A DNA stretch of 64,000 nucleotides from Pseudomonadales bacterium (GCA_020632265.1 JACKFW010000001.1:791272-855271); one strand, 5' to 3'. Positions 49,896-62,611 are shown, numbered from the stretch's first letter. Numbers and translations: made by a program. Notes: generated from the sequence alone by a model not told the origin.

Positions 49896-49966
49896 AGGGC
49901 CATAGTTTAGCGGTAGAATAGAGGTCTCCAAAACCTTTGACGGGGGTTCGATTCCCTCTGGCCCTG
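49896..49966 (+). tRNA. tRNA-Trp (anticodon CCA). It anchors the downstream cassette array.
   Basis: Acceptor AGGGCCA/TGGCCCT. D-arm GTTT-AGCGGTA-GAAT. Anticodon stem GAGGT/ACCTT with loop CTCCAAA. T-arm GGGGG-TTCGATT-CCCTC. The fold is closely similar to E. coli tRNA-Trp. The 3' 19 nt (GATTCCCTCTGGCCCTGCA) recur five times downstream. Confidence 0.85.
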
Positions 49967-49997
49967 CAAATATTTTCTAATTTGATACAATAAAAGT

Positions 49998-50387
49998 ATG
50001 AATCAAGATGAGCAAAGAATTCTTGCAGCAGCTGGCTGGTGCTTAAATAACCACCAAATTCCCAAATCTTTAAGTGATGGCAATTCTATTTGGAACTATT
50101 CTGGTTCTATTTCCAATTCTGAACTTAGACTGTACGAGGAAGATGGGCTGAACGTAATAATAAATAGAAGCGAAGTTAAAGAAATACTTCCAATTAGTCC
50201 AGAAAATAGAAATATCAAATATGGGGAAAAGAAGTGGCTAAATGGTGAATTGAACAGCAAATTCTATAATGGCATATTTTTTCTTCATGATGATATGAAG
50301 GTTTCTAGAGCTCTCGATGACTATTTAGATATTTCTCACCTAAGTGTGCGAATTGAAGGTGGACCAACCTTTTCAATTATAAAATAG
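49998..50387 (+). CDS. Cassette 1: hypothetical protein (129 aa).
   Basis: The ORF's stop codon TAG lies inside the boundary motif at 50383..50416. Confidence 0.5.
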   Translation: MNQDEQRILAAAGWCLNNHQIPKSLSDGNSIWNYSGSISNSELRLYEEDGLNVIINRSEVKEILPISPENRNIKYGEKKWLNGELNSKFYNGIFFLHDDMKVSRALDDYLDISHLSVRIEGGPTFSIIK

Positions 50388-50416
50388 GTTCTAACATCCT
50401 TCACTAGTCCCTGCAA
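50383..50416 (+). repeat. Short cassette-boundary motif (AATAGGTTC(G/T)AACATCCTTCACTAGTCCCTGCAA), copy a.
   Basis: It overlaps the stop codon of cassette 1. Confidence 0.8.
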
Positions 50417-50502
50417 CGCATTTTTTACTCGATATAGAAAATAAAAAACACTCAAAGGACACTCGGAAGTTTAAGCTTTAATTCATCTGATATAATTTCA
50501 CC

Positions 50503-51288
50503 ATGCAATTTAGAAAAATATCCTTTCCAAATGTAGTTCCGCCAACTGAATTTCCAGACGATGTAAAACTTTCTCTTCCAAACAATAGTAATTTACCAAC
50601 AGACCAACAACATTACTTATTATTCATTCCTTGGGAAGAAAGCTATCTCATTGGGATTCCTCGACAATATGTAGATTTCTTCAAACGAGTATTGCCACAT
50701 CTCCATACAAGAACAACTGATGTGCATACTGCGGTCTGCCTAGGCTATCTTGACGAGCTATTGTCTCAATTTGACCAACCGATCAATGAAAGAGTTGTTG
50801 CTTTAGCACTTATTCTTCATGACAGTGGTTGGAGCAAGCTTTCAGAAAAAGAAATAGCCATGAGCTTAGGTGTTTCAGGTCTGAAACTTACAGAAGGTGC
50901 CAAAAATCCCAAGGAAAAGCACGCGCTTGAAAGTGCGAAGATAACTACCAAAATGTTGAATGACTACGATTTCATTCCACCACTAAATGAAAAAGAAAAA
51001 GAACTTATCATCCAAGCTGTGCTTTATCATGACAAACCTGAAGAAGTTGCAGGGGCTGAAATAGAAATGCCCATTGAGATACAATTGCTAGTTGATTTAG
51101 ATCATCTTTGGTCTTTTACCCATCAAAATTTTTGGCAAGACACTTTACGTAAAGGAGTTCAGCCCAAAGAATATGTACAAAATTTACAACGAGACATTGA
51201 TGATTATTTTGTTACTGATCAGGGTAAAGAATTAGCCCTGAAATTACTTAACGAGAGACTTGATGAAGTAGAGGTAATTGAAAAATAG
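50503..51288 (+). CDS. Cassette 2: HD-domain phosphohydrolase-like protein (261 aa).
   Basis: ILHDSGW and LYHDKPEE motifs. The stop codon is embedded in the boundary motif at 51284..51317. Confidence 0.5.
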   Translation: MQFRKISFPNVVPPTEFPDDVKLSLPNNSNLPTDQQHYLLFIPWEESYLIGIPRQYVDFFKRVLPHLHTRTTDVHTAVCLGYLDELLSQFDQPINERVVALALILHDSGWSKLSEKEIAMSLGVSGLKLTEGAKNPKEKHALESAKITTKMLNDYDFIPPLNEKEKELIIQAVLYHDKPEEVAGAEIEMPIEIQLLVDLDHLWSFTHQNFWQDTLRKGVQPKEYVQNLQRDIDDYFVTDQGKELALKLLNERLDEVEVIEK

Positions 51289-51317
51289 GTTCGAACATCC
51301 TTCACTAGTCCCTGCAA
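51284..51317 (+). repeat. Short cassette-boundary motif, copy b.
   Basis: It overlaps the stop codon of the HD-domain cassette. Confidence 0.8.
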
Positions 51318-51451
51318 AAAACTAATTTTTGCCTATATACCAATATAATTTATACTAAAAGATTGCATATTTTTATCATTTAATCAATATACTTGTTATA
51401 TAAATAAACTCTCATCATTTTTAGATAATTTTGTACATGATAAAATAAACT

Positions 51452-51808
51452 ATGCTTGAAGAGGATAAATCAAAAAATTCAGAAATGGTCAAACTACCGA
51501 CGTTAAAAGATTGGATTGATAGACTAAGTGAGTTGAGAGATAAGATTTCTCCAGAAAAAGAATATTTAATTGGAGCATTTGCGACATATATGTATTTGCT
51601 AATTTTAGTTAGTCCTGAATCATTGCCTGGGCAAATTCAGCCAATGCTAGAGATGTTGAATGGAATTGATAAGAGTAGTTTTAGTCTTAAATTGACAACA
51701 ATGATTGCGTTTACTGGCTCAGTAGACGGTGCTAGAAGAATTGTTTTAGAGAGACTGCCTTCTTATAAAGCATATTTACAAGTATTTTTATTAAACAAAT
51801 TTGAATAA
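51452..51808 (+). CDS. Cassette 3: hypothetical protein (118 aa).
   Basis: The ORF is followed by the long boundary element at 51880..52096. Confidence 0.45.
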   Translation: MLEEDKSKNSEMVKLPTLKDWIDRLSELRDKISPEKEYLIGAFATYMYLLILVSPESLPGQIQPMLEMLNGIDKSSFSLKLTTMIAFTGSVDGARRIVLERLPSYKAYLQVFLLNKFE

Positions 51809-51879
51809 CAATTTCAATCCTTTGTTAGTTCGTTGATTATATAATTATAAGCCCAAAACCACCTCCCGACTCGAGGAAA

Positions 51880-52096
51880 AATAGGTTCGAACATCCTTCA
51901 CTAGTCCCTGCAAAATAAAATAAATCCCGAATGGGATTTCTTTTATTTTATGGGGTTGATAGGTGAATTTACCCATGCGAAGCATAGTTCTACCACATGG
52001 CGAACAAGCGAGAGCGCAGTGAGCCGGGTTAATGCATGCGAGCCAACTTACAGGAAGTATGATGTGGCGAGTCGCAGATTCCCTTTGGCCCTGCAA
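51880..52096 (+). repeat. Long cassette-boundary element, copy 1 (217 bp). It comprises the boundary motif, an intrinsic terminator hairpin (51917..51950), a ~150-nt GC-rich module and a 19-nt tRNA-Trp 3'-end copy. It is bracketed by the direct repeat CCCTGCAA.
   Basis: Seen directly. It ends in GATTCCCTTTGGCCCTGCAA, which matches the tRNA-Trp 3' end with one C>T change. It is followed by a TATAAT box at 52102..52107. Confidence 0.85.
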
Positions 52097-52107
52097 TATC
52101 CTATAAT
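52068..52107 (+). promoter_or_regulatory. Conserved outward-facing -10-like box (TCCTATAAT) immediately after the boundary elements. It is a candidate cassette promoter. The same arrangement occurs at 53035, 53834, 54767, 58714 and 61725.
   Basis: TATAAT or TATAAC occurs at a fixed offset (+6) after CCCTGCAA in 6 of 12 boundaries. A -35-like TTCACT lies 16 nt upstream in the short-motif versions. Confidence 0.3.
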
Positions 52108-52152
52108 AGTTATTCCGTCAAACAAAATGTGTTATAATTTCTCTAGTTGTTT

Positions 52153-53000
52153 ATGGTAATGACAGAAAAATCTCCAGTTTTAATGAGAGCTAATCCAGTT
52201 GAATTAGTTAAATTAGTTTGGTCTAATCGAGATAAAATTCCTAATTTTTTAAGCAGTTAAGAGAAATTATTAATGACGGAAAAGATTTAAATAAGAGATC
52301 TCTTTATGAAGATCTTAACCATATTAACGAATTATTTGGTACTTCAATTGAAATTGATGGTGTTGAAAATATTCCAAAAGAGGGTGGTGTAGTTGTTGTA
52401 ACATCTCATGTGGTCAATGTTAAAAACGCTCCGGGATGGAAGAACAAAAATGTCAATCCGTTTTGGTGGGCGAGTGGGATTGCTGAGGGTGTTAAAAAAG
52501 CTAGAAATGAAGAAATTCATCCAGTTGTCTATTCTCCAGGATCAAGCCTTTACACTCAAATAATCAGAGATGTATTTGATGGTTTTCCAGTTAGTCATAA
52601 AAAAGATGATAAAAGGAAAAATCACGAATCGATTATGCTGGCAAGAAAAGCAGTTGATCGAGGACAGGTAGTTTTAATAGCACCTGAGGGTGAAAATAGG
52701 ATTGGTTTAAGTAAACCTCACTTGGGTGGAATTAGTCGCTTACTTAGTAGTAGAACTATGTTTGTTCCAGTAGCTTTTTTTGAATTGGAGTCTGGAGGTG
52801 ATTTTTCGTATAAAGTTATTTTTGGAAAGCCAGTGACCTGTGATTTTGATTTACCTCTTCCAAAAAATTCAAGTGATTCTTTGCCACTAGATGAAGATGA
52901 TAGAAATAGAGTTGATGATTTTGTAGATTATTTAATGATTAGAATTGCTTCATTATTACCAGAAGATAAAAGAGGAGTTTATACAGATAAACTTAAATAA
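52153..53000 (+). pseudogene. Cassette 4: PlsC/LPLAT-family acyltransferase-like gene, apparently disrupted by a +1 frameshift at a T6 run (~52244..52250). The downstream ORF (GTG at 52410) continues the protein.
   Basis: ORF 52153..52259 (MVMTEKSPVLMRANPVELVKLVWSNRDKIPNFLSS*) is followed in the +1 frame by ...LFGTSIEIDGVENIPKEGGVVVVTSHVVNV... and APEGENRIG. These are acyltransferase motif I and III-like. The 3' end lies in boundary motif 52997..53029. Confidence 0.45.
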
Positions 53001-53029
53001 GTTCCAACATCGTTCACTAGTCCTTGCAA
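52997..53029 (+). repeat. Short cassette-boundary motif, copy c (variant GTTCCAACATCGTTCACTAGTCCTTGCAA). It is followed by TATAAT at 53035..53040.
   Basis: It overlaps the TAA stop of the acyltransferase-like gene. Confidence 0.75.
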
Positions 53030-53112
53030 TGTCCTATAATAGTTATATCCCCAAAGTACAGTGACATTTCTTCAATATTTTAATTGCAATAACTTATTGT
53101 ATAATTTGATAA

Positions 53113-53556
53113 ATGATATATAACAACTTCAATTATGACAATAAATCAATTCAAAATGATTTTGAACTAGAAAAAGTAACAAAACAAATTGAATCAGAAT
53201 TGATTGAAGGATTTCAATTAAATGAAGATGATGAAATAAAAGTAACTTTCTTCGCTCCAATAGAAATTGGGGTAATAATTAAATCTAAAGAATTTAATAT
53301 AAAGTTTAGTCTTTTAACTAGAAAAATTGGTCGCTGTGTTGATATTTATAGTATTTCGGTCACAAACAAAGGAGTAGGAGTAGGAAGAAAAGTATTAACG
53401 AAAATCGAGGAAATAGGAAAAAAATATAGCTGCAAGATGGTTAATATAATCGGACCCCTAAAGAAAAGTATAAAATTTTACGAAAAACTTGGCTATGTAA
53501 AGAAGTATACTTCCCCTTTTGATAGAGATATGGTAAAGATATTGAGTGCTAATTGA
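53113..53556 (+). CDS. Cassette 5: GNAT-family N-acetyltransferase (147 aa).
   Basis: Motif A region KGVGVGRKVL and FYEKLGYV. It is followed by a long boundary element. Confidence 0.65.
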   Translation: MIYNNFNYDNKSIQNDFELEKVTKQIESELIEGFQLNEDDEIKVTFFAPIEIGVIIKSKEFNIKFSLLTRKIGRCVDIYSISVTNKGVGVGRKVLTKIEEIGKKYSCKMVNIIGPLKKSIKFYEKLGYVKKYTSPFDRDMVKILSAN

Positions 53557-53611
53557 ATTTATGATTTCAGATAACTTTTTTTATTGATGCTTACTTGATA
53601 TCTAATAGAAA

Positions 53612-53828
53612 CATAGGTTCTAACATCCTTCACTAGTCCCTGCAAAATAAAATAAATCCCGAATGGGATTTCTTTTATTTTATGGGGTTGATAGGTGAAT
53701 TTACCCATGCGAAGCATAGTTCTACCACATGGCGAACAAGCGAGAGCGCAGTGAGCCGGGTTAATGCATGCGAGCCAACTTACAGGAAGTATGATGTGGC
53801 GAGTCGCAGATTCCCTTTGGCCCTGCAA
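53612..53828 (+). repeat. Long cassette-boundary element, copy 2.
   Basis: It is identical to copy 1 and lies inside the 1,732-bp duplication. Confidence 0.85.
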
Positions 53829-53884
53829 TATCCTATAATAGTTATTCCGTCAAACAAAATGTGTTATAATTTCTCTAGTTGTTT

Positions 53885-54732
53885 ATGGTAATGACAGAAA
53901 AATCTCCAGTTTTAATGAGAGCTAATCCAGTTGAATTAGTTAAATTAGTTTGGTCTAATCGAGATAAAATTCCTAATTTTTTAAGCAGTTAAGAGAAATT
54001 ATTAATGACGGAAAAGATTTAAATAAGAGATCTCTTTATGAAGATCTTAACCATATTAACGAATTATTTGGTACTTCAATTGAAATTGATGGTGTTGAAA
54101 ATATTCCAAAAGAGGGTGGTGTAGTTGTTGTAACATCTCATGTGGTCAATGTTAAAAACGCTCCGGGATGGAAGAACAAAAATGTCAATCCGTTTTGGTG
54201 GGCGAGTGGGATTGCTGAGGGTGTTAAAAAAGCTAGAAATGAAGAAATTCATCCAGTTGTCTATTCTCCAGGATCAAGCCTTTACACTCAAATAATCAGA
54301 GATGTATTTGATGGTTTTCCAGTTAGTCATAAAAAAGATGATAAAAGGAAAAATCACGAATCGATTATGCTGGCAAGAAAAGCAGTTGATCGAGGACAGG
54401 TAGTTTTAATAGCACCTGAGGGTGAAAATAGGATTGGTTTAAGTAAACCTCACTTGGGTGGAATTAGTCGCTTACTTAGTAGTAGAACTATGTTTGTTCC
54501 AGTAGCTTTTTTTGAATTGGAGTCTGGAGGTGATTTTTCGTATAAAGTTATTTTTGGAAAGCCAGTGACCTGTGATTTTGATTTACCTCTTCCAAAAAAT
54601 TCAAGTGATTCTTTGCCACTAGATGAAGATGATAGAAATAGAGTTGATGATTTTGTAGATTATTTAATGATTAGAATTGCTTCATTATTACCAGAAGATA
54701 AAAGAGGAGTTTATACAGATAAACTTAAATAA
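53885..54732 (+). pseudogene. Duplicate copy of the frameshifted acyltransferase-like cassette (second unit of the 1,732-bp tandem duplication).
   Basis: It is identical to 52153..53000, shifted by 1,732 bp. Confidence 0.45.
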
Positions 54733-54761
54733 GTTCCAACATCGTTCACTAGTCCTTGCAA
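54729..54761 (+). repeat. Short cassette-boundary motif, copy d (duplicate of c).
   Basis: It is identical to copy c, shifted by 1,732 bp. Confidence 0.75.
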
Positions 54762-54844
54762 TGTCCTATAATAGTTATATCCCCAAAGTACAGTGACATT
54801 TCTTCAATATTTTAATTGCAATAACTTATTGTATAATTTGATAA

Positions 54845-55288
54845 ATGATATATAACAACTTCAATTATGACAATAAATCAATTCAAAATGATTTTGAACT
54901 AGAAAAAGTAACAAAACAAATTGAATCAGAATTGATTGAAGGATTTCAATTAAATGAAGATGATGAAATAAAAGTAACTTTCTTCGCTCCAATAGAAATT
55001 GGGGTAATAATTAAATCTAAAGAATTTAATATAAAGTTTAGTCTTTTAACTAGAAAAATTGGTCGCTGTGTTGATATTTATAGTATTTCGGTCACAAACA
55101 AAGGAGTAGGAGTAGGAAGAAAAGTATTAACGAAAATCGAGGAAATAGGAAAAAAATATAGCTGCAAGATGGTTAATATAATCGGACCCCTAAAGAAAAG
55201 TATAAAATTTTACGAAAAACTTGGCTATGTAAAGAAGTATACTTCCCCTTTTGATAGAGATATGGTAAAGATATTGAGTGCTAATTGA
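54845..55288 (+). CDS. Duplicate GNAT-family acetyltransferase cassette.
   Basis: It is identical to 53113..53556, shifted by 1,732 bp. Confidence 0.65.
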   Translation: MIYNNFNYDNKSIQNDFELEKVTKQIESELIEGFQLNEDDEIKVTFFAPIEIGVIIKSKEFNIKFSLLTRKIGRCVDIYSISVTNKGVGVGRKVLTKIEEIGKKYSCKMVNIIGPLKKSIKFYEKLGYVKKYTSPFDRDMVKILSAN

Positions 55289-55343
55289 ATTTATGATTTC
55301 AGATAACTTTTTTTATTGATGCTTACTTGATATCTAATAGAAA

Positions 55344-55560
55344 CATAGGTTCTAACATCCTTCACTAGTCCCTGCAAAATAAAATAAATCCCGAATGGGA
55401 TTTCTTTTATTTTATGGGGTTGATAGGTGAATTTACCCATGCGAAGCATAGTTCTACCACATGGCGAACAAGCGAGAGCGCAGTGAGCCAGGTTAATGCA
55501 TGCGAGCCAACTTACAGGAAGTATGATGTGGCGAGTCGCAGATTCCCTCTGGCCCTGCAA
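55344..55560 (+). repeat. Long cassette-boundary element, copy 3.
   Basis: It is near-identical. Its 3' 19 nt exactly match the tRNA-Trp 3' end (GATTCCCTCTGGCCCTGCA). Confidence 0.85.
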
Positions 55561-55669
55561 ACGTTCAATTTTTGACTGTAAATAGGCCTTTTTTAATTTA
55601 AGTATTTTCAAAATTCAGATACTTTGCTGAAAAATAGTGTTTAGCAATACTTTGATATAATGTTGGCTT

Positions 55670-56830
55670 ATGATTTCTAAAGAACATATTCCACTCGGAG
55701 CATACTTTTATCCATTAACTAACTCATGTCCTATTAGAAATAAGAGGGCGAAAGAACTGGGATTTAAGTCTTCAACTAATGAAACACTATTAGCTCAAGA
55801 AGCCGAGTCCTTATTTGAAGGACACGATCAACCAAAGACCTACTCTTTAGGTGATCTCGATAAAACAGTTTGGGATGATAGTGACAGGGATTCAATGGCT
55901 ATACAAATTGAATTAGCTCAGGAGCATGAGCTAGATTTTTTTATTTTTAATTCTTACATGGGAAATAGGTATGGAGTGTTTATGCATGAAGCAAGCGCGC
56001 CTTTAGATGACAATTTTTTAGAAATAGTTGATCCGAATGGTATGAAATTTGCTACAATGATTACTAAAGGTGGAACTAGAGCTGCACTTCCAATTCCTTT
56101 TGGAGAGGCCTCAAGCGAGCCTAATCGCGACTATGATATCTCTGTTGAATCCGCAAGGGCAATAGTGGACAAGTGTGCTCGAACGTATTGGGATCATCCA
56201 AATTATTTATTTTTACAACAAAAACCATATTTGTCTTATTGGTTGCCAGGATTTTCAAATAATAAAATTGCACAACAACATGTTACTGATTTTGTTGATG
56301 AAATTTATAATTATTCTCTAAAACAATATGGCATCGATCCTTATTTAGTTGGGGTTATTAAGAGAGCAAACCAAGTTAGAAGTTATATTGAATTGGGATT
56401 AGATCATTTAACTTCATATGCCATGTTGGCAGATTTTTCTTCTCAAGCCGATCCCATACAGGTATATGAGGATAGAGTTGAAGCAGTTGGCAAAGAGTGG
56501 GCTGAGATAAAAGATTTGGGAGCTATTTTTGTTCCATCCGCTGTTATTGGTTGGGATGGTTCTCCTAGGGGAGAAAAAGGTCGATCATGGAATGAAGTTA
56601 AAGGAACTTACCCACACTCGCCAGTCATTATTGATGAAACCCCAGAAAAATTTAGCATTATGCTGGCAAATGCACTAAAGTTTGTAGCAGAAAATGTCCC
56701 TAAAGAAGATCGGTATGGTGTTGTTTGCGCTTGGAATGAAGTTACTGAAGGAAGTGCGCTTTTGCCTAGAATATTTGACAATGAACCAAGTTTCGCATAT
56801 TTAGAAATAATAAAAAATTTAAGTAAGTAG
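55670..56830 (+). CDS. Cassette: hypothetical protein (386 aa), possibly glycoside-hydrolase or WbsX-like. The assignment is weak.
   Basis: Long ORF bounded by long repeat elements on both sides. Confidence 0.45.
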   Translation: MISKEHIPLGAYFYPLTNSCPIRNKRAKELGFKSSTNETLLAQEAESLFEGHDQPKTYSLGDLDKTVWDDSDRDSMAIQIELAQEHELDFFIFNSYMGNRYGVFMHEASAPLDDNFLEIVDPNGMKFATMITKGGTRAALPIPFGEASSEPNRDYDISVESARAIVDKCARTYWDHPNYLFLQQKPYLSYWLPGFSNNKIAQQHVTDFVDEIYNYSLKQYGIDPYLVGVIKRANQVRSYIELGLDHLTSYAMLADFSSQADPIQVYEDRVEAVGKEWAEIKDLGAIFVPSAVIGWDGSPRGEKGRSWNEVKGTYPHSPVIIDETPEKFSIMLANALKFVAENVPKEDRYGVVCAWNEVTEGSALLPRIFDNEPSFAYLEIIKNLSK

Positions 56831-56903
56831 CTTTATAAAAAAGCACGTGAATTTTTTTGACTTACTTATTATAAGCCCAAAACCACCTCCCAACTAGAGG
56901 AAA

Positions 56904-57119
56904 AATAGGTTCGAACATCCTTCACTAGGCCCTGCAAAATAAAATAAATCCCGAATGGGATTTCTTTTATTTTATGGGGTTGATAGGTGAATTTACCCAT
57001 GCGAAGCATAGTTCTACCACATGGCGAACAAGCGAGAGCGCAGTGAGCCAGGTTAATGCATGCGAGCCAACTTACAGGAAGTATGATGTGGCGAGTCGCA
57101 GATTCCCTCTGGCCCTGCA
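56904..57119 (+). repeat. Long cassette-boundary element, copy 4.
   Basis: It is near-identical and shares an extra ~45 bp of upstream homology with copy 1 (TTATAAGCCCAAAACCACCTCCC.ACT.GAGGAAAAATAGG). Confidence 0.85.
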
Positions 57120-57204
57120 TCTCAATTTTTTACTTAATTCCTCTCAAGTATAAGGGTTCTGACCACAACATAGACAGTGAGACAAAATAGAACCTAGGGT
57201 ATAC

Positions 57205-57729
57205 TTGCAATATATGAGGGATTTTCAAAATATTTCATTGATTATTGTTTCAGGTCCACTTGGATCGGGAAAATCTAGTCTTTGCAAGAAAATTGAAGAT
57301 GAGCTTGCATTTTCTCGAGTTGATGGTGATTCATTTTTTGTTCCGCTCGAAAAAACTAGTTTGAGTTGGGAGGAAAGAGGACAAAAAAGTTGGCAGTGGA
57401 TAGCTAGTCAAACAAAAAAACACCTTAGCAGTGGAAAAAAAGTTGTTCTTGATTTTGTTGTAGAAAATGAATTACCTTGGTTTTTGTCACAAATAGAAGA
57501 ATATAATGTGCGGGTTAAATATATTGTGTTAATTGCTGAAGAAGAAACAATTAAGAAAAGATTGCATAAGAGAGATGGTGGTCTTCAATACTACGAACGA
57601 TCAAAAGTTCTTTTGGATCAACTGAAAAACGAACCCCAAAATAACAAATATCTGCTAGACACAACTGGGATGACTACTGATGAAGTTTATGATTATGTTG
57701 TAAATAACGAACGCTTCATTTTGAAATAG
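57205..57729 (+). CDS. Cassette: P-loop NTPase/kinase (AAA_33, zeta-toxin or small-molecule-kinase-like; 174 aa).
   Basis: Walker A GPLGSGKSS at the N-terminus. The stop codon is embedded in boundary motif 57725..57758. Confidence 0.55.
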   Translation: MQYMRDFQNISLIIVSGPLGSGKSSLCKKIEDELAFSRVDGDSFFVPLEKTSLSWEERGQKSWQWIASQTKKHLSSGKKVVLDFVVENELPWFLSQIEEYNVRVKYIVLIAEEETIKKRLHKRDGGLQYYERSKVLLDQLKNEPQNNKYLLDTTGMTTDEVYDYVVNNERFILK

Positions 57730-57758
57730 GTTTCAACATCCTTCACTAGCCCCTGCAA
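57725..57758 (+). repeat. Short cassette-boundary motif, copy e. It is followed by a decayed remnant of the terminator-hairpin region.
   Basis: AATAGGTTTCAACATCCTTCACTAGCCCCTGCAA, then AGTAAAATAATCCCGATATTGATA. Confidence 0.75.
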
Positions 57759-57811
57759 AGTAAAATAATCCCGATATTGATAACTTGAAATATTCTGATA
57801 TATTTTGAGAG

Positions 57812-58504
57812 ATGTCAAATACTGAAAACAGTGTGTATGTTATTTCTTCAGTCAGGGGTGTCTCTGAACTAGAAAGAACAGAAATTGAGCAACATATAAG
57901 AAACTTGCGTCAGTCGGGAGAAGAAGTATTTGATCCGTATTTAGACGCACCTCAAACTGATACAAGCGGTCTTGCAATAATACTCGCAGAATTGAATTTC
58001 TTGGTAAAGCTGTCAGAGTCTAGTGATCTTGGAAGGGTTGATATTTTTTGGAATCATACAAGTGAGGGTTCAAGGGTAGATGTTGGGATGGCTATAGCCT
58101 TAAACCTAAGGATTAATCTGGTTAAAATTTTTAATGAGAATGAGAGCTCTTCTCCTCAACTTGTGTTGCGACTTATTACCGAAATCTGTGAGCTTCAGGA
58201 AATGAGTAACTGGCCACCACAAAAACGAAAAGAAATTAGCCCTGATCTTGCCAAAACACTCAGATATTTAGATGAAATAAAAAACTCTGAGCAAATATCA
58301 ATTAATTGGAATTCATTGGATTCAGAAGAAGCTGAATTTCAGAGATTAATCTTGGGTTTGTCGCTGGGGACAATGGGTAAGAGAAACAAAAATTTAAAAA
58401 TAAAAATAAGAGATGTTGATGGGTATGTTGACCCCGATGTAAAAAGTTATCCTAATGCAATTTCGGCACTAAATACATTACTGACAACTGAAAATAGGTT
58501 CTAA
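57812..58504 (+). CDS. Cassette: hypothetical protein (230 aa).
   Basis: The ORF terminates at TAA inside the boundary motif (58493..58708), in a different frame from the other cassettes. Confidence 0.45.
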   Translation: MSNTENSVYVISSVRGVSELERTEIEQHIRNLRQSGEEVFDPYLDAPQTDTSGLAIILAELNFLVKLSESSDLGRVDIFWNHTSEGSRVDVGMAIALNLRINLVKIFNENESSSPQLVLRLITEICELQEMSNWPPQKRKEISPDLAKTLRYLDEIKNSEQISINWNSLDSEEAEFQRLILGLSLGTMGKRNKNLKIKIRDVDGYVDPDVKSYPNAISALNTLLTTENRF

Positions 58505-58708
58505 CATCTTTCACTAGTTCCTGCAAAAATAATAAATCCCGAATGGGATTTCTTTTAATTTATGTGGTCGATAGGTGAATTTAGCCATGCAAAGCATAGT
58601 TCTACCACATGGCGAACAAGCGAGAGCGCAGTGAGCCAGGTTAATGCATGCGAGCCAACTTACAGGAAGTATGATGTGGCGAGTCGCAGATTCCCTCTGG
58701 CCCTGCAA
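58493..58708 (+). repeat. Long cassette-boundary element, copy 5 (most diverged).
   Basis: About 90% identical. It has an exact tRNA-Trp 3' copy and is followed by TATAAT at 58714..58719. Confidence 0.85.
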
Positions 58709-58776
58709 AATCCTATAATAGTAATATATTCTTCTCAAACATTGTTTCCAATTTATCTATATGACATAATAAAGTT

Positions 58777-59631
58777 ATGGAAACAGATAAAATCAACACA
58801 CCAACCCAACTAGAAGTAAATCAATCAGAACAAGCAGGTCCACTGCACACCACACAGCCACCTCAAACAAAGAACATGAAAGTTTGGATGGGTGTTGGGA
58901 TATTGTTACTTTTTGTAATATCTGCTGGTAGTTACAGATTGGGTCAGAACAATGGCAAAAAATCATCTAGTATTACTGATAGTAAACTGGAAACTTCAAA
59001 CCCAATAGAGACTGATAATGCTGTGGCATGTACTGCAGATGTCAAAGAATGTCCTGATGGATCATTTGTAGGTAGAGTAGCTCCTAATTGTGAGTTTGAA
59101 GATTGTGGAAATACGATTGATGATCAAGAAACTGAGCAGACTATAGAAAAGAATAGTCTTGAAGAAGGCTCAAATGTTTTACTTTACAAAAATGATATTT
59201 TTGGATTTATGGTTGAATATCCAATAAGTTATACAGTTGTTGATAAGTTGCAGTTAGATAATGCAGAATGGAGACCCGATAAAGATCTTACTTTTATAGA
59301 TGATCAAAATATAAAAAATCCTTCAATTTCTCTAAGATTAGATTATGATGGTTATGGAGTAAGTTTTCCGCTCGAAATATGGAAAATAATTTATGATGAG
59401 CTTCAACAAAAGCTAATTATTGAGAATAAAGAAGTTCAGGATAGATCCTTTATTAAAGAAGCAACAGGAGAAGATATTAGTAATGTATTGATTGTCACTG
59501 GATCAGAAAGAACTATTTTTTCAGACAAGCAAAGGAGTTTGTCTTTTATTTTGAAGTATGAAGGTGAAAAAGATTTAGAAATAGAAAATCAATTTGAAGC
59601 ATTTATTGAGAGTTTTAAGCTAGTTAAATAA
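58777..59631 (+). CDS. Cassette: membrane-anchored protein with a CxxDxxECPDGSFVGRVAPNCEFEDC motif (284 aa).
   Basis: N-terminal TM (VWMGVGILLLFVISAGSY). The Cys motif is shared with ORF 44403..46121. Confidence 0.5.
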   Translation: METDKINTPTQLEVNQSEQAGPLHTTQPPQTKNMKVWMGVGILLLFVISAGSYRLGQNNGKKSSSITDSKLETSNPIETDNAVACTADVKECPDGSFVGRVAPNCEFEDCGNTIDDQETEQTIEKNSLEEGSNVLLYKNDIFGFMVEYPISYTVVDKLQLDNAEWRPDKDLTFIDDQNIKNPSISLRLDYDGYGVSFPLEIWKIIYDELQQKLIIENKEVQDRSFIKEATGEDISNVLIVTGSERTIFSDKQRSLSFILKYEGEKDLEIENQFEAFIESFKLVK

Positions 59632-59672
59632 GTTCTAAATAAATAGCATGTTGGAGTGGTCGTTTGAGGAAA

Positions 59673-59706
59673 AATAGGTTCTAACATCCTTCGCTAGTCC
59701 CTGCAA
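59673..59706 (+). repeat. Short cassette-boundary motif, copy f.
   Basis: GAGGAAAAATAGGTTCTAACATCCTTCGCTAGTCCCTGCAA. Confidence 0.8.
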
Positions 59707-59773
59707 ATAACCAATATTTGCCTATAAATCAATCCAAATTGACTAAGTTCTAATATCGTCTACTTGATACTTT

Positions 59774-60388
59774 TTGTCTGATATACTCATATTATGTATG
59801 CCAAATGATGAAATATCAGTTGAGTCACAACCTGTAGCTGAAAAACCTAAACTGAAAGAACAACCTTTACCTCCTCACTGGACCTATTTAATTCATGGGT
59901 CAAACTTAGAAAAGCCTCAGTGGCAAGGAGATGGAGTTGATCAGTTAGATGGAGATATGTTTATTATCAAAGGATCGGGGCTCTCTGTTATCGATAAAGC
60001 CGATAAAGAGATGGCACAACAAGAAGCTGAGGAAATGAGAGCAAGAGGTATAAAAACTGGTGGTTATAACACCACAAGTAACTATTCAAGAGGCAGAGGC
60101 ACTCCTCTTGAAATTAGAGTGATTTTCCCCTCATTTAATTCGAGGAGTCCCTTAACTAAAGAGCAACGAGCTGAGCTTGTTAAAAAATATGGTGAAGAAA
60201 TAGTCCAGGCTCTTTATGAATTGGCAGATATGGTACATTGGAATAACTACAAGAGTGGCAGACATCCATTTTTACCAAAAGGCATGAAGCTCTCAAAAAT
60301 CATGGATCAAACTTTAGAAGAGAGACGAATCATTCAGTATGTTCCCGAGATGATCTTCAATATATATCAACAAGAGGTGGCTAAATAA
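59774..60388 (+). CDS. Cassette gene: hypothetical protein (204 aa).
   Basis: The ORF abuts the NUDIX gene (TAA-ATG). Confidence 0.45.
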   Translation: MSDILILCMPNDEISVESQPVAEKPKLKEQPLPPHWTYLIHGSNLEKPQWQGDGVDQLDGDMFIIKGSGLSVIDKADKEMAQQEAEEMRARGIKTGGYNTTSNYSRGRGTPLEIRVIFPSFNSRSPLTKEQRAELVKKYGEEIVQALYELADMVHWNNYKSGRHPFLPKGMKLSKIMDQTLEERRIIQYVPEMIFNIYQQEVAK

Positions 60389-60862
60389 ATGACAAAATAT
60401 AACCCAAACCATTCCCAAGAAGTTATAAATTATTTAGTTGGACAGAAAGTAGTCATTTTTAATTCAGAAGGCCAAATTTTATTCTTAAGAAGATCTGAAA
60501 AGTGCACAAGAGCAGGAGGGTGGGATTTTCCAGGAGGTGGATTGGAAAATGAACAACCAACTGAAGGTATTAAAAGAGAGGCAAGAGAAGAAGTGGGTAT
60601 TGAAGTTAGCGGATTGAAACCTGTAGCTTTAATTTCCCATGAAAGCAAAGAACCAGGAGTAAGAGTACTTCTTGTTGGTTATGTTGCTTATTTGAAATCT
60701 GGTAATGTTAAACTTAGTTGGGAGCACGACGCTCATAAATGGCTTAAGATCGACGAAGCTCTTAAAGTTGATTTGCCAGAAGGTCATAGAAAGTTTCTTG
60801 ATGCAGCAATTGAGTCTTGGGAAACAAAATATGTCAGAATACCATCTGGGGTTTTATTATGA
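60389..60862 (+). CDS. NUDIX hydrolase (157 aa).
   Basis: Nudix box GGGLENEQPTEGIKREAREEVGI fits Gx5Ex7REUxEExGU. Confidence 0.75.
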   Translation: MTKYNPNHSQEVINYLVGQKVVIFNSEGQILFLRRSEKCTRAGGWDFPGGGLENEQPTEGIKREAREEVGIEVSGLKPVALISHESKEPGVRVLLVGYVAYLKSGNVKLSWEHDAHKWLKIDEALKVDLPEGHRKFLDAAIESWETKYVRIPSGVLL

Positions 60863-61554
60863 TATTTGAACAAAATACTCCAGCTATGGAAAATGAGATA
60901 GATATCGAGCCAAAAACAATCGACGGTAAAATGCAAGCTGTTTTTACAGCGATGAGGAAAATGAAATATCTGGTACCTCTATCTGAAGCTCTCGCTATTA
61001 GGGATCCAAGTAAACATGATCAACTAGTAAGTGAAAGGTATATGCAACGAGACTGGAGGACTATCATTGCAGAGAGCAAAGAAAACTCTGATATGGGACC
61101 ATTAGCTTGCGCAGAAGTAGCCCTAATAGCAAAAAAATTAACAGAAGAAACTTATGGATTACAGGTAAGAATGGTTGATACTCTGAGTAAGCACTGGCTC
61201 CAAGACAAGGAGGGATCAGGGCAAGGTCATGTATTTATCGAAGTATTCGATCATGATACTGAGGATTGGCAAGTTTATAATCCAGTAACTGGAGAAAAAT
61301 GTCAGTGGGAAGAAGATGAGGATGGAAAATACATTCATTGGAAGGCGGGATATCAAATCTCCTTGGATAAAACGTTAACGATTGATGATAATTATTATCG
61401 TTGGTTGGAAGAGAATTCTGAGAATGTTCCAGAAGATGGTGTTGGATATGAGGGGTTGTATCAAATTAGTGATAGGGATAAAGACTATTTTGATTCTATG
61501 CAAAGAATGGCTTCTGAAGCAAATATAATATATCAAAATAAAGGCAAGATGTAA
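60859..61554 (+). CDS. Hypothetical protein (~232 aa), translationally coupled to the NUDIX gene (ATGA overlap).
   Basis: The ORF track start is at 60817. An ATG at 60859 overlapping the NUDIX stop codon is the more plausible start. Confidence 0.4.
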   Translation: MIFEQNTPAMENEIDIEPKTIDGKMQAVFTAMRKMKYLVPLSEALAIRDPSKHDQLVSERYMQRDWRTIIAESKENSDMGPLACAEVALIAKKLTEETYGLQVRMVDTLSKHWLQDKEGSGQGHVFIEVFDHDTEDWQVYNPVTGEKCQWEEDEDGKYIHWKAGYQISLDKTLTIDDNYYRWLEENSENVPEDGVGYEGLYQISDRDKDYFDSMQRMASEANIIYQNKGKM

Positions 61555-61685
61555 TCCTCTCAGTCTACGCAATAGCTCTTCTTTTTCAAAATATAAGATC
61601 AATGCCAAAATGGATTCTTAAAGGTGTCTAATGAACTAGATAACTTAAACTTATAATAACGCAAAATCGCCATCTCCCTCAATAA

Positions 61686-61719
61686 AATAGGTTAGAACAT
61701 CCTTAACTAGTCCCTGCAA
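61686..61719 (+). repeat. Short cassette-boundary motif, copy g. It is followed by TATAAC at 61725..61730.
   Basis: AATAGGTTAGAACATCCTTAACTAGTCCCTGCAATATCCTATAAC. Confidence 0.8.
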
Positions 61720-61740
61720 TATCCTATAACTATTGATTTT

Positions 61741-62235
61741 GTGCAATTTTTTGATAAAATCAATTTTATGTCGAAAGAAAATCTCATTATTATTGAACAA
61801 AATAATCTTCTACTTGATATTATAAAAGAAATTGAATCTGGTTTGTTAGAAAAATATGTTGGTCATGGTATCTCAAGGGGAACTCCACAAGAACAATATC
61901 TATCACTGATCAGTATATTACAAACTGGTAGAATAATTGGGAATTGGGCAACATTATTACCGGATTCATATGAAGGTGCATATTCTCATGGTAGTTTTCT
62001 TTTGCTTTCTTATTATGGAAAAAACTTAGTTGTTGCCGAAAAACTACATTTAAATGTAGTTATAGTCAATGGTTACTTTGAATCACAAATTTCTGAACTT
62101 GAAGGAATGTTTCCTGAAGTTACATTTATCCATGCAAAGGATTTTAATAATTGGATAATAAATGAATCAAAAATACTAAATAGATTCAAAAAATTAAAAA
62201 AATACTGGAGATTGCCAAGTCGAACTGTCAGATAG
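61741..62235 (+). CDS. Cassette: hypothetical protein (164 aa).
   Basis: It is preceded by boundary motif 61686..61719 plus a TATAAC element. It is followed by a degenerate motif copy at ~62249..62275. Confidence 0.45.
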   Translation: MQFFDKINFMSKENLIIIEQNNLLLDIIKEIESGLLEKYVGHGISRGTPQEQYLSLISILQTGRIIGNWATLLPDSYEGAYSHGSFLLLSYYGKNLVVAEKLHLNVVIVNGYFESQISELEGMFPEVTFIHAKDFNNWIINESKILNRFKKLKKYWRLPSRTVR

Positions 62236-62611
62236 ATGAGGTTAAAAATAGATTAGAACACCACCCACCAAACAATATCTATTTTGTTGAAAAAAATGGC
62301 AAATGGGTTGGGATAATTGTCTCATATGTAAGCGAAAAGGAAAAAATTGAATAATATTATGAATAAAGCTGGATTTTATGTTGTGCTCGAATAGCGTGAC
62401 AAAATGAAATGAAGTATCGCAATATAGTCCTAGAATATTTACTTATTATCCGAAAATTGATATAATTGTTTATTCTCTGATGCTTAAATATAACTATTAT
62501 AATGTTTTTTTGGCTTCTTCTAATTAACATATTTGGCTGGTTAAACTAGTCCATGATTATAAAAAAACTTGGTTTTTTGAATAAATAAACCTAATAAAAT
62601 ACATAAATAAA

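Follow-up and report, generated by a model that had tools for sequence, protein, structure and literature searches.

Organization of the tRNA-Trp Locus

The window, by which is meant the whole 64,000-nucleotide stretch of DNA analyzed here, belongs to a Paceibacteria-like bacterium of the ultra-small CPR/Patescibacteria. It contains a tRNA-Trp(CCA) gene, located by both ARAGORN and Rfam, which is followed by a row of small genes punctuated by 12 copies of a short motif, AAATAGGTTCnAACATCnTTCACTAGnCCCTGCAA, and by five copies of a longer unit, here termed X. The ORFs called between these sites share one orientation. A tRNA-Trp-anchored, one-directional array with conserved boundary sites had been described in a first-pass annotation, and that description holds. 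The features are as follows.

49896-49967, + strand: tRNA-Trp(CCA); 3' end GGTTCGATTCCCTCTGGCCCTGCA, to 49968; array anchor and proposed attB-type site
49998-50416, + strand: cassette 1; 129-aa ORF, its stop being the TAG of motif copy 1 (50382-50416)
50417-51317, + strand: cassette 2; 261-aa HD-domain ORF (50503-51288), its stop being the TAG of motif copy 2 (51283-51317)
51318-51913, + strand: cassette 3; 118-aa ORF (51452-51808), extension (51844-51881), motif copy 3 (51879-51913)
51914-52095, + strand: X copy 1; hairpin 51922-51939, body 51952-52095, 3' arm matching the final 19 nt of tRNA-Trp with 1 mismatch
52096-53029, + strand: cassette 4; acyltransferase-like ORF (52410-53000), TAA stop in motif copy 4 (52995-53029)
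53030-53645, + strand: cassette 5; 147-aa GNAT ORF (53113-53556), motif copy 5 (53613-53645)
53608-55339, + strand: second copy of a duplication; X copy 2 (53646-53827), acyltransferase-like repeat, motif copy 6 (54727-54761), GNAT repeat
55343-55559, + strand: motif copy 7 (55345-55377) and X copy 3 (55378-55559)
55560-56937, + strand: cassette 6; 386-aa WbsX-like glycosyltransferase ORF (55670-56830), extension (56867-56905), motif copy 8 (56903-56937)
56938-57119, + strand: X copy 4
57120-57758, + strand: cassette 7; 174-aa P-loop kinase ORF (AAA_33; 57205-57729), its stop being the TAG of motif copy 9 (57724-57758)
57759-58526, + strand: cassette 8; 230-aa ORF (57812-58504), stop inside motif copy 10 (58492-58526)
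58527-58707, + strand: X copy 5, the most diverged X in the window
58708-59706, + strand: cassette 9; 284-aa Cys-rich membrane-like ORF (58777-59631), motif copy 11 (59672-59706)
59707-61719, + strand: cassette 10; 204-aa ORF, 157-aa NUDIX ORF and 245-aa ORF (59774-61554), motif copy 12 (61685-61719)
61720-64000, + strand: array continuation; 164-aa ORF (61741-62235) and a 504-aa ORF running from 62720 off the window end

The array had initially been ended at 62300, which is too short. Contig L036, identical to window positions 58680-64000 over 5321 nt, carries it beyond the window end to 18,967 bp past the tRNA, i.e. at least 19 kb, and holds 5-7 further, more degenerate motif copies (profile search, L036 positions 5724, 6628, 6701, 7752 and 10255 plus two weak ones). 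Part of the array is a near-perfect 1732-bp tandem duplication (51876-53607 and 53608-55339, 99-100% identity), so that two cassettes were counted twice in the original tally of about 13 ORFs. The duplication also shows that ordinary homologous recombination between repeats contributes to shaping the array.

Pfam supported the NUDIX, P-loop kinase (AAA_33) and WbsX-like glycosyltransferase assignments and, weakly, those of HD and GNAT. The HD ORF of cassette 2 is homologous to a cassette ORF in related locus L007. Of the products listed earlier, the PlsC-like acyltransferase (52410-53000) had no match in Pfam. Because the first ∼55 codons of this ORF contain no in-frame start, it may be frameshifted.

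The 35-bp Motif

All 12 motif copies are on the + strand after tRNA-Trp, within about 50382-61719. None was found in the window's remaining ∼50 kb, none is expected in shuffled sequence, and a profile search recovered the same 12. Comparison of copies across genomes revealed a sharp-edged conserved block of 35 bp, which replaces the ∼34 bp first given for this motif. In the same cross-genome set of 77 distinct copies, the TAG of the motif terminates the upstream ORF in 26, and an ORF stop lies in the motif or at most 60 nt upstream in 57. The motif profile score drops as distance from the tRNA grows (Spearman rho = -0.90, p = 1e-7, n = 19). The conserved ∼38-nt extension in cassette 3, ATAAGCCCAAAACCACCTCCCGACTCGAGGAAAAA (51844-51881), shares 91-94% identity with its counterparts in L002, L004 and L008. 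A degenerate, weakly motif-like stretch is present at 59743-59764, after motif copy 11.

The motif resembles the tRNA 3' end, as had been suggested, in that it repeats the outer and inner blocks of that end spaced 5 bp wider: from GGTTCGA to the end of the shared CCCTGCAA there are 30 nt in the motif versus 25 nt in the tRNA. No conserved right half-site follows CCCTGCA at the small cassettes. Hairpin potential is absent (single-stranded DNA minimum free energy -0.1 kcal/mol, z = +0.9), in agreement with the original statement that the repeats are not attC-like palindromes; the motif is conserved in sequence, not in structure.

The X Element

The tRNA 3' end GATTCCCTCTGGCCCTGCA recurs five times with 0-1 mismatch (at 52077, 53809, 55541, 57101 and 58689). 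The first-pass annotation had correctly recorded these 19-nt copies at five boundaries but had read them as the signature of att-site duplication. Instead, each copy closes a ∼190-bp X unit placed after a motif copy, motif and X together making up what had been called the 217-bp form; no X unit occurs elsewhere in the window. X is a non-coding, structured element of ∼140-185 nt, in which a terminator-like hairpin precedes a body that folds on the + strand and has the 19-nt copy as its 3' arm. The predicted body helix imitates the acceptor/T-stem stack of the host's tRNA-Trp, and the ends of X co-vary with the host's own tRNA-Trp. X can also directly follow the tRNA. It is a unit separate from the motif, and the five 19-nt copies cannot simply be read as att scars where cassettes end. 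Cassettes are also found downstream of its 3' arm, which supplies a second end of tRNA type. X may act as a processed RNA, as an additional landing pad, or as both.

Variable Cargo between Conserved Flanks in Related Genomes

Further motif copies were found in related genomes, where co-oriented arrays follow tRNA-Trp in every locus with enough context. A same-strand upstream tRNA-Trp is present in the window and in L002, L008, L009/25/31, L010, L011, L012, L013, L018, L023, L028 and L039-L045. Long contigs matching the exact pattern, including those of 340 kb, 526 kb, 533 kb and 1.19 Mb, hold one locus each. Seventeen arrays contain 2-8 motifs each at a median spacing of 841 bp, with 76 co-oriented and 10 opposite ORFs, and up to eight one-gene modules occur in succession.

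Comparison of these tRNA-Trp loci showed conserved flanks enclosing variable content. Over the 3.7 kb preceding the tRNA, L002, L008, L013 and L028 show synteny and 66-80% identity; downstream of the tRNA in the same four loci, matches are almost limited to the repeats. At the distal flank, both L012 and L026 have NusG after the array, and L026 shares two downstream genes with L029. Related arrays differ in their cargo, which includes toxin-antitoxin, Fic, NUDIX, HD and GNAT genes, the toxin-antitoxin and Fic families recurring across many arrays. Despite this differing cargo, the motif is near-identical and sharp-edged across MAGs labelled Woesebacteria, Pacebacteria and Paceibacterota.

One toxin-antitoxin cassette is modular to the base. 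Its copy at L004 1294-1950 matches L009 977-1644 at 72%; the homology breaks off precisely at the right-hand site, and the two copies have unrelated neighbours. The 284-aa cassette that follows an X end in the window follows a motif in L004, L017 and L026, with homology beginning at the shared CCCTGCA. The array is a one-directional row of swappable one-to-three-gene modules, integron-like in its working but not in its build.

Large Serine Recombinases at the tRNA-Trp End

No recombinase gene was detected among the window ORFs scanned, consistent with the earlier report of an array without an integrase, and most arrays, like the window, have no large serine recombinase (LSR) gene. In L041, L044 and L045, an LSR gene (Resolvase, Recombinase and Zn ribbon domains) abuts the tRNA-Trp 3' end, and a 6-8 kb LSR element fills the exact interval from the tRNA-Trp end (…CCTGC|A) to a motif copy. 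The complete elements also carry Cro-like and LexA-like regulators, cargo genes and the terminal motif, and one of the three encodes a DnaD-like protein. Those of L041 and L045 are colinear through the last gene before the motif copy and unrelated past it. L041 and L044 have terminal motifs that agree at 33 of 35 positions, although the genes preceding them are unrelated. An LSR of 52% identity adjoins a tRNA-Gln 3' end with the same …GC|A junction.

The zinc-ribbon-domain motif of LSR sites lies 5 bp nearer the centre in attB than in attP (PMC3783163), and the 5-bp offset between motif and tRNA end corresponds to this published difference between the serine integrase sites. Searches for tyrosine recombinases gave no IntI-like protein in ∼45 loci, no XerD-like protein in 465 ORFs of the loci and window (phmmer, one approximate E. 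coli XerD seed) and no match in Pfam scans of selected ORFs. Of the tyrosine and serine recombinases that the first-pass annotation had proposed to look for beside motif copies, the serine type was found linked to the site in related genomes.

Proposed Mechanism

Serial tRNA-targeted integration, already put forward in the first-pass annotation, is the best explanation of the array. Specifically, we favour, at a probability of roughly 0.6, repeated integration at tRNA-Trp by serine recombinases, which would also move recombinase-less cassettes in cis or in trans. The tRNA-Trp 3' end (…GGTTCGATTCCCTCTGGCCCTGC|A) would be the chromosomal attB-type attachment site of an integration hot spot, where mobile DNA would enter, each newcomer pushing older insertions away from the tRNA. 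The motif at the far end of every module would be the left half (P arm) of the attP of an LSR family, and the small cassettes would be recombinase-less modules comprising their own promoter, one to three genes and the terminal motif. Given that the junction of motif and next cassette would be attR-like and that of tRNA and first cassette attB-like, a visiting LSR element could integrate at the tRNA and excise via any downstream motif, gaining or leaving cassettes. In such a process of accretion and cis-mobilization, the LSR would recognize the motif, crossover would probably fall within the shared CCCTGCA, and the small cassettes would presumably move individually. An integron-like outcome would then have been reached by a different route.

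Serine integrases normally bind two quasi-symmetric half-sites. With no conserved right half after CCCTGCA, the serine-recombinase model needs an enzyme tolerating an arbitrary right half; the non-conserved DNA downstream of the tRNA requires the same. In addition, attP-like x attP-like reactions are barred under canonical LSR rules, so that excision of a single internal cassette has no explanation unless a directionality factor is involved; no such factor was identified. Also counting against this reading, the window and most arrays have no LSR gene, and neither circular cassettes nor empty sites were seen. The LSR elements could alternatively have been inserted before a pre-existing array via an attP unrelated to the motif, the distal motif then being that of the resident cassette, but the motif variant shared by L041 and L044 speaks against this.

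Alternative Explanations

An unlikely alternative is that the array is an integron analogue in which an unlinked tyrosine or other recombinase joins the motif (as attC analogue) to the tRNA-Trp end (as attI analogue), the LSR elements being unrelated visitors. In common with chromosomal integrons, the cassettes are single-gene, co-oriented and rich in toxin-antitoxin genes and place the site at the stop codon, and the one-sided conservation of the site is unlike a serine-integrase site. X forms a long, imperfect hairpin whose base holds CCCTGCA and whose centre varies, loosely recalling a folded attC, and the 19-nt tRNA-end repeats, identical from the T-loop on, have the look of a classic tyrosine-integrase att duplication. 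By contrast, the single-seed and selected-ORF searches described above found no tyrosine recombinase in the window or the ∼45 loci, the site neither forms a hairpin nor is conserved in structure, and the sole recombinase found at it is an LSR carried by motif-terminated elements. The parallel first drawn with integrons and VCR arrays therefore extends to array organization and not to integron membership.

Somewhat less probable still is that the motif is mainly an expression signal (a 3'-end/insulator or a -35 promoter half) in arrays that shuffle by homologous recombination, transformation and duplication. At several junctions, TTCACT in the motif lies 16 nt before the TATAAT of the next cassette, as in the composite promoter-like site at 53013-53040, which spans the cassette 4/5 junction and takes its TTCACT from motif copy 4. 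Moreover, the 1732-bp duplication is of the kind that unequal crossing-over between repeats produces, 35 bp is close to the shortest length that supports RecA-dependent exchange, and CPR bacteria are thought to take up DNA. However, promoter-like sites are not enriched overall (56 found versus 55.7 expected), and an expression signal would be expected at other genes, whereas the motif occurs only after tRNA-Trp. Its sharp-edged near-identity across differently labelled MAGs, its position at the end of LSR elements and its resemblance to the tRNA end with a 5-bp offset also argue against such a role.

That the cassettes are immobile fossils, left by serial integration of complete elements and subsequent deletion of the recombinase module, is improbable. 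The decay of motif quality away from the tRNA would suit this scenario, as would tycheposon islands, in which tandem elements and remnants are separated by partial tRNAs (bioRxiv 10.1101/2020.12.28.424599). Nevertheless, the compact cassettes have only 60-150 nt from site to next start codon, fragments of recombinase pseudogenes were not seen, a row of eight one-gene modules would need eight precise deletions, and toxin-antitoxin module boundaries are base-exact in two genomes. Generic dispersed repeats (REP/MITE-like) clustered here by chance, suggested by a short, conserved, intergenic sequence beside gene ends, have a negligible likelihood and are already contradicted by a motif confined to a single locus even on Mb-size contigs, absent from the rest of the window, and always on one strand and anchored at tRNA-Trp.

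Comparison with Known Systems

Chromosomal (super)integrons such as the Vibrio VCR arrays share with this array one fixed insertion end, co-oriented and mostly single-gene cassettes, a site directly after or overlapping the stop codon, cargo of toxin-antitoxin, GNAT and NUDIX type that varies among relatives, and distal cassettes that seem older. Unlike them, the array has no IntI gene or attI beside an integrase gene, is anchored at a tRNA, and contains many cassettes with their own TATAAT box; its 35-bp site is sequence-conserved and non-folding, whereas attC is structure-conserved, and the linked recombinase in its relatives is a serine rather than a tyrosine enzyme.

At the ICESt1/CIME locus of Streptococcus thermophilus, a single chromosomal site holds an autonomous element and, in tandem with it, recombinase-less att-bearing elements (CIMEs), and co-excision is possible through alternative att copies. 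This logic of accretion and cis-mobilization is the one proposed for the tRNA-Trp array, although the streptococcal system involves tyrosine integrases, few large elements and a protein-gene 3' end, compared with up to ∼19 miniature modules, a tRNA anchor and an LSR here. The Xer-dependent pdif sites of Acinetobacter plasmids are 28-bp inverted XerC/XerD sites in alternating orientation. They likewise bound small modules, including toxin-antitoxin genes, that recur in different contexts with short conserved recombination sites, but the sites described here are direct, asymmetric, chromosomal and tRNA-anchored.

The LSRs of phages (A118/LI, Bxb1, phiC31; PMC3783163) have the same Resolvase, Recombinase and Zn ribbon domains, short sites, a recombinase gene at the element edge, and an outer block that, compared with the element site, lies 5 bp nearer the crossover in the host site (PMC3783163). 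Their known sites have two recognizable half-sites, whereas the left half alone is conserved at the cassette junctions, no directionality factor was identified here, and arrays of dozens of attR-like sites have not been described for these enzymes.

Prochlorococcus tycheposons build tRNA-adjacent islands by repeated integration in which newcomers push older elements inward, and resemble the present system in their streamlined genomes, tyrosine or large serine recombinases, and cargo modules with remnants (bioRxiv 10.1101/2020.12.28.424599). They are kb-scale elements with integration and replication modules and partial tRNA copies between them (bioRxiv 10.1101/2020.12.28.424599), whereas in the tRNA-Trp array most boundaries consist of a tRNA-like 35-bp motif instead of a tRNA fragment and the units are single genes.

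Organization of the Array

A tRNA-Trp(CCA) gene opens an array of one- to three-gene cassettes, each closed by a 35-bp motif. Twelve copies of this motif, all on the + strand and all within 50385-61719, were located with a degenerate pattern that gave 0 matches in shuffled sequence, and the same scan found the motif absent from the remaining ~50 kb of the window. Searching with a profile of all motif copies recovered the identical 12. The last 19 nt of tRNA-Trp recur in five further copies with 0-1 mismatch, each closing a ~190-bp non-coding unit, here termed X, behind a motif copy. The pattern, profile, and 19-nt searches bear out the tRNA-Trp-anchored repeats reported in a first-pass annotation made from the sequence alone. 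The 217-bp form described there is present but is not one repeat, consisting of the motif followed by the separate element X.

Features of the array in the window and in related loci or contigs (L handles)
Window 49896-49967, + strand: tRNA-Trp(CCA), by ARAGORN and Rfam
Window 51914-52095: X
Window 53646-53827: X
Window 55378-55559: X
Window 56938-57119: X
Window 58527-58707: X
L002 4809-4992: X
L008 3040-3184: X
L039 9674-9815: X
L013 3779-3912 and 6361-6480: X
Window 51844-51881 and 56867-56905: ~38-nt extension 5' of the motif
L002 7061-7098, L004 2620-2657, and L029 6150-6175, and in L008 and L013: ~38-nt extension

The array had been taken to end at 62300. A Logan contig (L036) equals the window over 5321 nt and then continues with more co-oriented accessory genes and 5-7 additional, weaker motif copies, which carries the array on to 18,967 bp from the tRNA. 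GC content is ~33% and flat across the whole window; there is therefore no compositional island. Pfam supported the earlier gene calls for HD, GNAT, P-loop kinase, and NUDIX proteins, as well as a WbsX-like assignment, but not the call of a PlsC protein.

A near-perfect 1732-bp tandem duplication (51876-53607 and 53608-55339) comprises X and the acyltransferase-like and GNAT cassettes, and short-read contigs of the same population break at its repeats. It arose either by recent unequal crossing-over of X copies or as an artefact of assembly; its presence suggests that homologous recombination also acts at the array. At 52160-52410, the acyltransferase-like ORF, which is open for ~251 codons, includes no ATG, GTG, or TTG in its first ~55. 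Coding-like sequence lies upstream in another frame, with the same state in both duplicates; the ORF is possibly a pseudogene with a frameshift.

Composite promoter-like sites span cassette junctions at 53013-53040, 54745-54772, and 57742-57769, each with a -35-like TTCACT in the motif, 16 nt, and then TATAAT or AATAAT where the next cassette begins. Near a full motif copy lie two weak, degenerate or truncated motif-like stretches, one at 59743-59764 (E = 0.43) and one noted by eye (59629-59640), which may be remains of lost cassettes. Some motif copies that no ORF enters are preceded by a ~38-nt extension (ATAAGCCCAAAACCACCTCCCRACTMGAGGAAAAA) with 91-94% identity between genomes, in which an anti-Shine-Dalgarno-like CACCTCC stands opposite GAGG and a small hairpin is possible.

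Distribution of the Locus

An exact-pattern scan of one genome per species matched the motif in 8 MAGs. Six of these carry the label Paceibacterota, Pacebacteria, Woesebacteria, or "Patescibacteria group." The remaining two appear as "uncultured Pseudomonadales," a designation that we consider erroneous, like that of the window's own protein. The NCBI label "Pseudomonadales bacterium" on the source MAG likewise looks like a taxonomic mislabel. A JGI metagenome scan for the motif yielded 24 more loci. Related loci comprise same-strand arrays of 2-8 motif copies at a median spacing of 841 bp, and ORFs inside the arrays number 76 co-oriented versus 10 opposite.

Wherever upstream context was present, the array was opened by tRNA-Trp on the same strand (the window, L002, L008, L009/25/31, L010, L011, L012, L013, L018, L023, L028, and L039-L045), and all arrays begin after …CCCTGCA of an intact tRNA-Trp gene, placing insertion at its 3' end. 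Each contig, including those of 0.34-1.19 Mb, carried one motif locus. Given a single locus per contig, always at tRNA-Trp, the repeats are locus-specific rather than dispersed. This, together with their absence elsewhere in the window, contradicts the generic genome-wide repeats that the first-pass annotation had raised as a refuting alternative; REP/MITE-type repeats, defined by many scattered genomic copies, do not fit the window or the related contigs. A viral or satellite origin was rejected because the motif, the X pattern, and the recombinase described below had no match in IMG/VR. An origin in Prochlorococcus tycheposons, prompted by the low GC content and the tRNA island, was rejected because the motif scan matched Patescibacteria MAGs only.

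The protein encoded divergently from tRNA-Trp (48356-49684, - strand) is 442 aa long and has no Pfam domain. It has >900 homologues at E ≤ 1e-10, the best 120 being 60-78% identical, and its position beside tRNA-Trp is kept across Patescibacteria.

Cassettes as Probable Mobile Modules

The 3.7 kb 5' of tRNA-Trp are syntenic and 66-80% identical in four related loci, whereas 3' of the gene, matches among the same loci are almost confined to the repeats; differing cassette content in relatives is what the first-pass annotation had proposed to look for. The distal flank recurs in part: beyond the array lies NusG in both L012 and L026, and two downstream genes are common to L026 and L029. Among the matches listed, cargo recurring in different arrays included toxin-antitoxin pairs (13 and 10 members) and Fic proteins (10 members). 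One toxin-antitoxin module aligns site to site between L004 and L009, ending exactly at the right-hand core, with unrelated neighbours in the two loci. Motif quality drops with distance from the tRNA (rho = -0.90, p = 1e-7), the trend predicted when incoming DNA is added beside the tRNA and older cassettes decay. Strain variants of the exact array in the window were sought by exact-protein look-ups, which returned only short contigs broken at repeats in addition to the array-extending contig L036. At a probability of roughly 0.8, we favor reading the locus as a tRNA-Trp hot spot that carries a site-specific cassette array.

The 35-bp Motif as a Probable Recombination Site

The conserved block measures 35 bp (AAATAGGTTCnAACATCnTTCACTAGnCCCTGCAA; 76 distinct copies), and conservation falls sharply on either side. 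In 26 of 77 copies, the upstream ORF terminates at the TAG of the motif, and in another 27 its stop lies ≤60 nt 5' of the motif; the site is therefore carried along with the 3' end of the gene before it. Translated read-through after UAG was rejected, since variable positions 8, 15, and 24 are not three-periodic, and is also opposed by one copy with an in-frame TGA. As single-stranded DNA, the motif has a minimum free energy of -0.1 kcal/mol, compared with -1.07 in shuffles (z = +0.9; z = 0 with 20-nt flanks). Lacking hairpin potential, it is not attC-like, in agreement with the first-pass annotation, and the absence of a fold likewise led us to reject a hairpin-forming attC or an IS200/IS605-type end as its identity. 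Neither the motif nor X matched a known RNA family in Rfam at gathering thresholds or E ≤ 5.

The sequence CCCTGCA recurs in the tRNA end and in every motif copy and every X end, forming direct repeats of the att core at element boundaries. Identical cassette starts, such as TATCCTATAATAG with a -10 box, were found behind both motif copies and tRNA-type ends. A cassette encoding a 284-aa protein lies behind an X end in the window and behind a motif in L004, and homology begins at the common CCCTGCA, which places the exchange point inside that core.

An outer block, GGTTCGA, and the inner block CCCTGCA are shared by the motif and the tRNA end, 5 bp wider apart in the motif: counted on the sequences, the stretch from GGTTCGA through the end of CCCTGCAA measures 25 nt in the tRNA as against 30 nt in the motif, an offset seen in the left half alone. 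In serine integrases, the outer (ZD) block is 5 bp nearer the crossover in the chromosomal site attB than in the element-borne site attP (PMC3783163), the same difference as that between tRNA end and motif. No conserved right half-site was found 3' of CCCTGCA at 73 cassette junctions, which do not display the two quasi-symmetric half-sites around a central dinucleotide that characterize sites of large serine recombinases (LSRs). The right arm of the LSR elements themselves (ACRTTAGTAYGATRC) has weak symmetry, as judged by eye.

Large Serine Recombinases at the tRNA End

No recombinase was found among the scanned window ORFs, as the first-pass annotation had stated for the array, or inside the arrays. 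With XerD as the phmmer query, no tyrosine recombinase was recovered from 465 ORFs of the loci and the window, and Phage_integrase was absent from the listed Pfam matches of window and locus ORFs. When tRNA-Trp loci were fetched via homologues of the conserved 442-aa neighbour, an LSR gene was found adjoining the tRNA-Trp 3' end in L040-43 and then, via its homologues (56-58% identical), in L044 and L045. The proposed check for a recombinase beside copies of the site had a split outcome: an LSR gene adjoins the tRNA end in L041, L044, and L045, and none was found in the window or most arrays.

The LSR-element insertion starts directly 3' of …CCTGC. The element carries, in order, the LSR gene, small ORFs, a Cro-like HTH protein, a LexA/S24-like repressor, and cargo that includes a TIR-domain protein and an SDH-family protease, with a DnaD-like protein additionally in L044. 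A motif copy lies 5.8-7.9 kb from the tRNA end. L041 and L045 are colinear through the last gene before the motif and unrelated past it, and L041 and L044 share a motif variant (33 of 35 positions identical) behind unrelated genes. In L046 (10001-11556), an LSR relative (52% identical) adjoins tRNA-Gln(CTG) at its 3' end, where the junction is again …GC|A; simple searches found no tRNA-Gln-like terminal site in that element. The LSR family seems to retarget between tRNA 3' ends.

Predicted Structure of Element X

X lies directly 3' of tRNA-Trp in L002, L008, L039, and L013. It starts with a hairpin and T-run that show compensatory changes between genomes; the body is 120-184 nt long (142-184 nt in nine distinct aligned sequences) and is closed by a ~15-bp helix pairing its 5' end with the tRNA-like 3' arm (RNAalifold). 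A covariance model revealed two diverged copies in L013, whose 3' arms match that locus' own differing tRNA-Trp end and whose 5' arms are altered with pairing kept. In the model-fitted alignment of 12 distinct rows, 95% of cells were paired and 8 of 29 pairs were changed on both sides, which 0 of 500 shuffles equalled. The single-sequence fold is no more stable than shuffles (z = -0.07). About a fifth of paired cells in the 9-row alignment are G·U, which favors the + strand as RNA or single-stranded DNA.

Copies of X differ in length by 1, 2, 5, 6, and 40 nt; lengths differing by non-multiples of 3 rule out coding on either strand, and antisense ORFs of 74-106 aa are spurious. Identity as a tRNA, tmRNA, or Rfam family was also rejected: ARAGORN finds only five true tRNAs, Rfam gave nothing at gathering thresholds or E ≤ 5, and despite a 5' end that looks tmRNA-like by eye there is no conserved tag frame, G3:U70 pair, or T-arm. 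X looks like a candidate new structured RNA that would mimic the tRNA acceptor/T-stem stack. It might act as a processed RNA imitating a tRNA, as a terminator unit that insulates, or as an additional landing pad of attB type, the last because cassettes follow each copy. A partial X in L029 (6560-6740), into which an opposite-strand ORF runs, has a variable centre with a tandem 37-nt unit (four copies) and TTCACC (about four copies).

Discussion

We regard the P-arm half-site of the LSR family as the most probable identity of the motif, with the tRNA-Trp end as the attB of that family. Cassettes would be recombinase-less modules that keep only this half-site, and a visiting LSR element would integrate at the tRNA and excise via an alternative downstream motif, loading or unloading cassettes. 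The logic of accretion and cis-mobilization is known from CIMEs, and the proposed cassette loading follows it. The LSR model is also consistent with the serial integration of tycheposon islands (bioRxiv 10.1101/2020.12.28.424599). Weighing against it, no LSR was found among the scanned window ORFs, the right half-site is not conserved at cassette junctions, and the loci examined yielded no directionality factor, circles, or empty sites; it may also be that the LSR elements just inserted ahead of arrays already in place. On balance, we lean toward the LSR-based mechanism.

More tentatively, and with the odds somewhat against so complete a picture, Patescibacteria may possess an undescribed gene-capture platform equivalent to the integron in function but built from other parts. 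The tRNA-Trp 3' end would be the insertion site and the 35-bp serine-integrase half-site the cassette tag; a transient LSR "shuttle" element would take single-gene cassettes from cell to cell, loading and unloading them; and X, as a new structured RNA mimicking the tRNA-Trp acceptor/T-helix, would be an internal landing pad or processing signal.

CPR/Patescibacteria have tiny genomes with few recognised mobile elements and, to our knowledge, no described integrons. The locus matters for how they gain accessory and defence genes, being one predictable, hypervariable site that MAGs labelled Paceibacterota, Pacebacteria, and Woesebacteria have in common and where toxin-antitoxin, Fic, NUDIX, HD, GNAT, and further accessory genes are found. 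Should the serine-recombinase model prove correct, the locus would represent an integron-like cassette system reached by a second and independent path and a testable case of a serine integrase acting on a one-sided site, and tRNA-Trp plus the motif would be a marker with which to mine CPR accessory genes and to type strains in metagenomes. X would add a new tRNA-mimicking RNA that co-varies with the host tRNA.

The locus is functionally like a chromosomal integron in its co-oriented cassettes, one-end insertion, and content that varies between relatives, and to this extent the integron parallel drawn in the first-pass annotation holds. It fails in the parts: no intI-type gene (a tyrosine recombinase with the IntI-specific insertion) was found beside the array by the XerD phmmer search or Pfam, and whereas attC sites are inverted repeats that fold as single strands and are conserved in structure, the motif is conserved in sequence and does not fold. 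With no IntI and no attC, the locus is not an integron by membership. It belongs with tRNA-anchored islands built by serial site-specific integration. The recombinase gene found at the edge of tRNA-targeting elements is present at L041, L044, and L045 but was not found in the window or most arrays. In the literature searched, there was no description of a tRNA-Trp/35-bp-site cassette architecture, as had been supposed from the outset. Compared with known islands, the locus is unusual in its miniature single-gene modules, its tRNA-like one-sided 35-bp site, its serine recombinase, and its host phylum.
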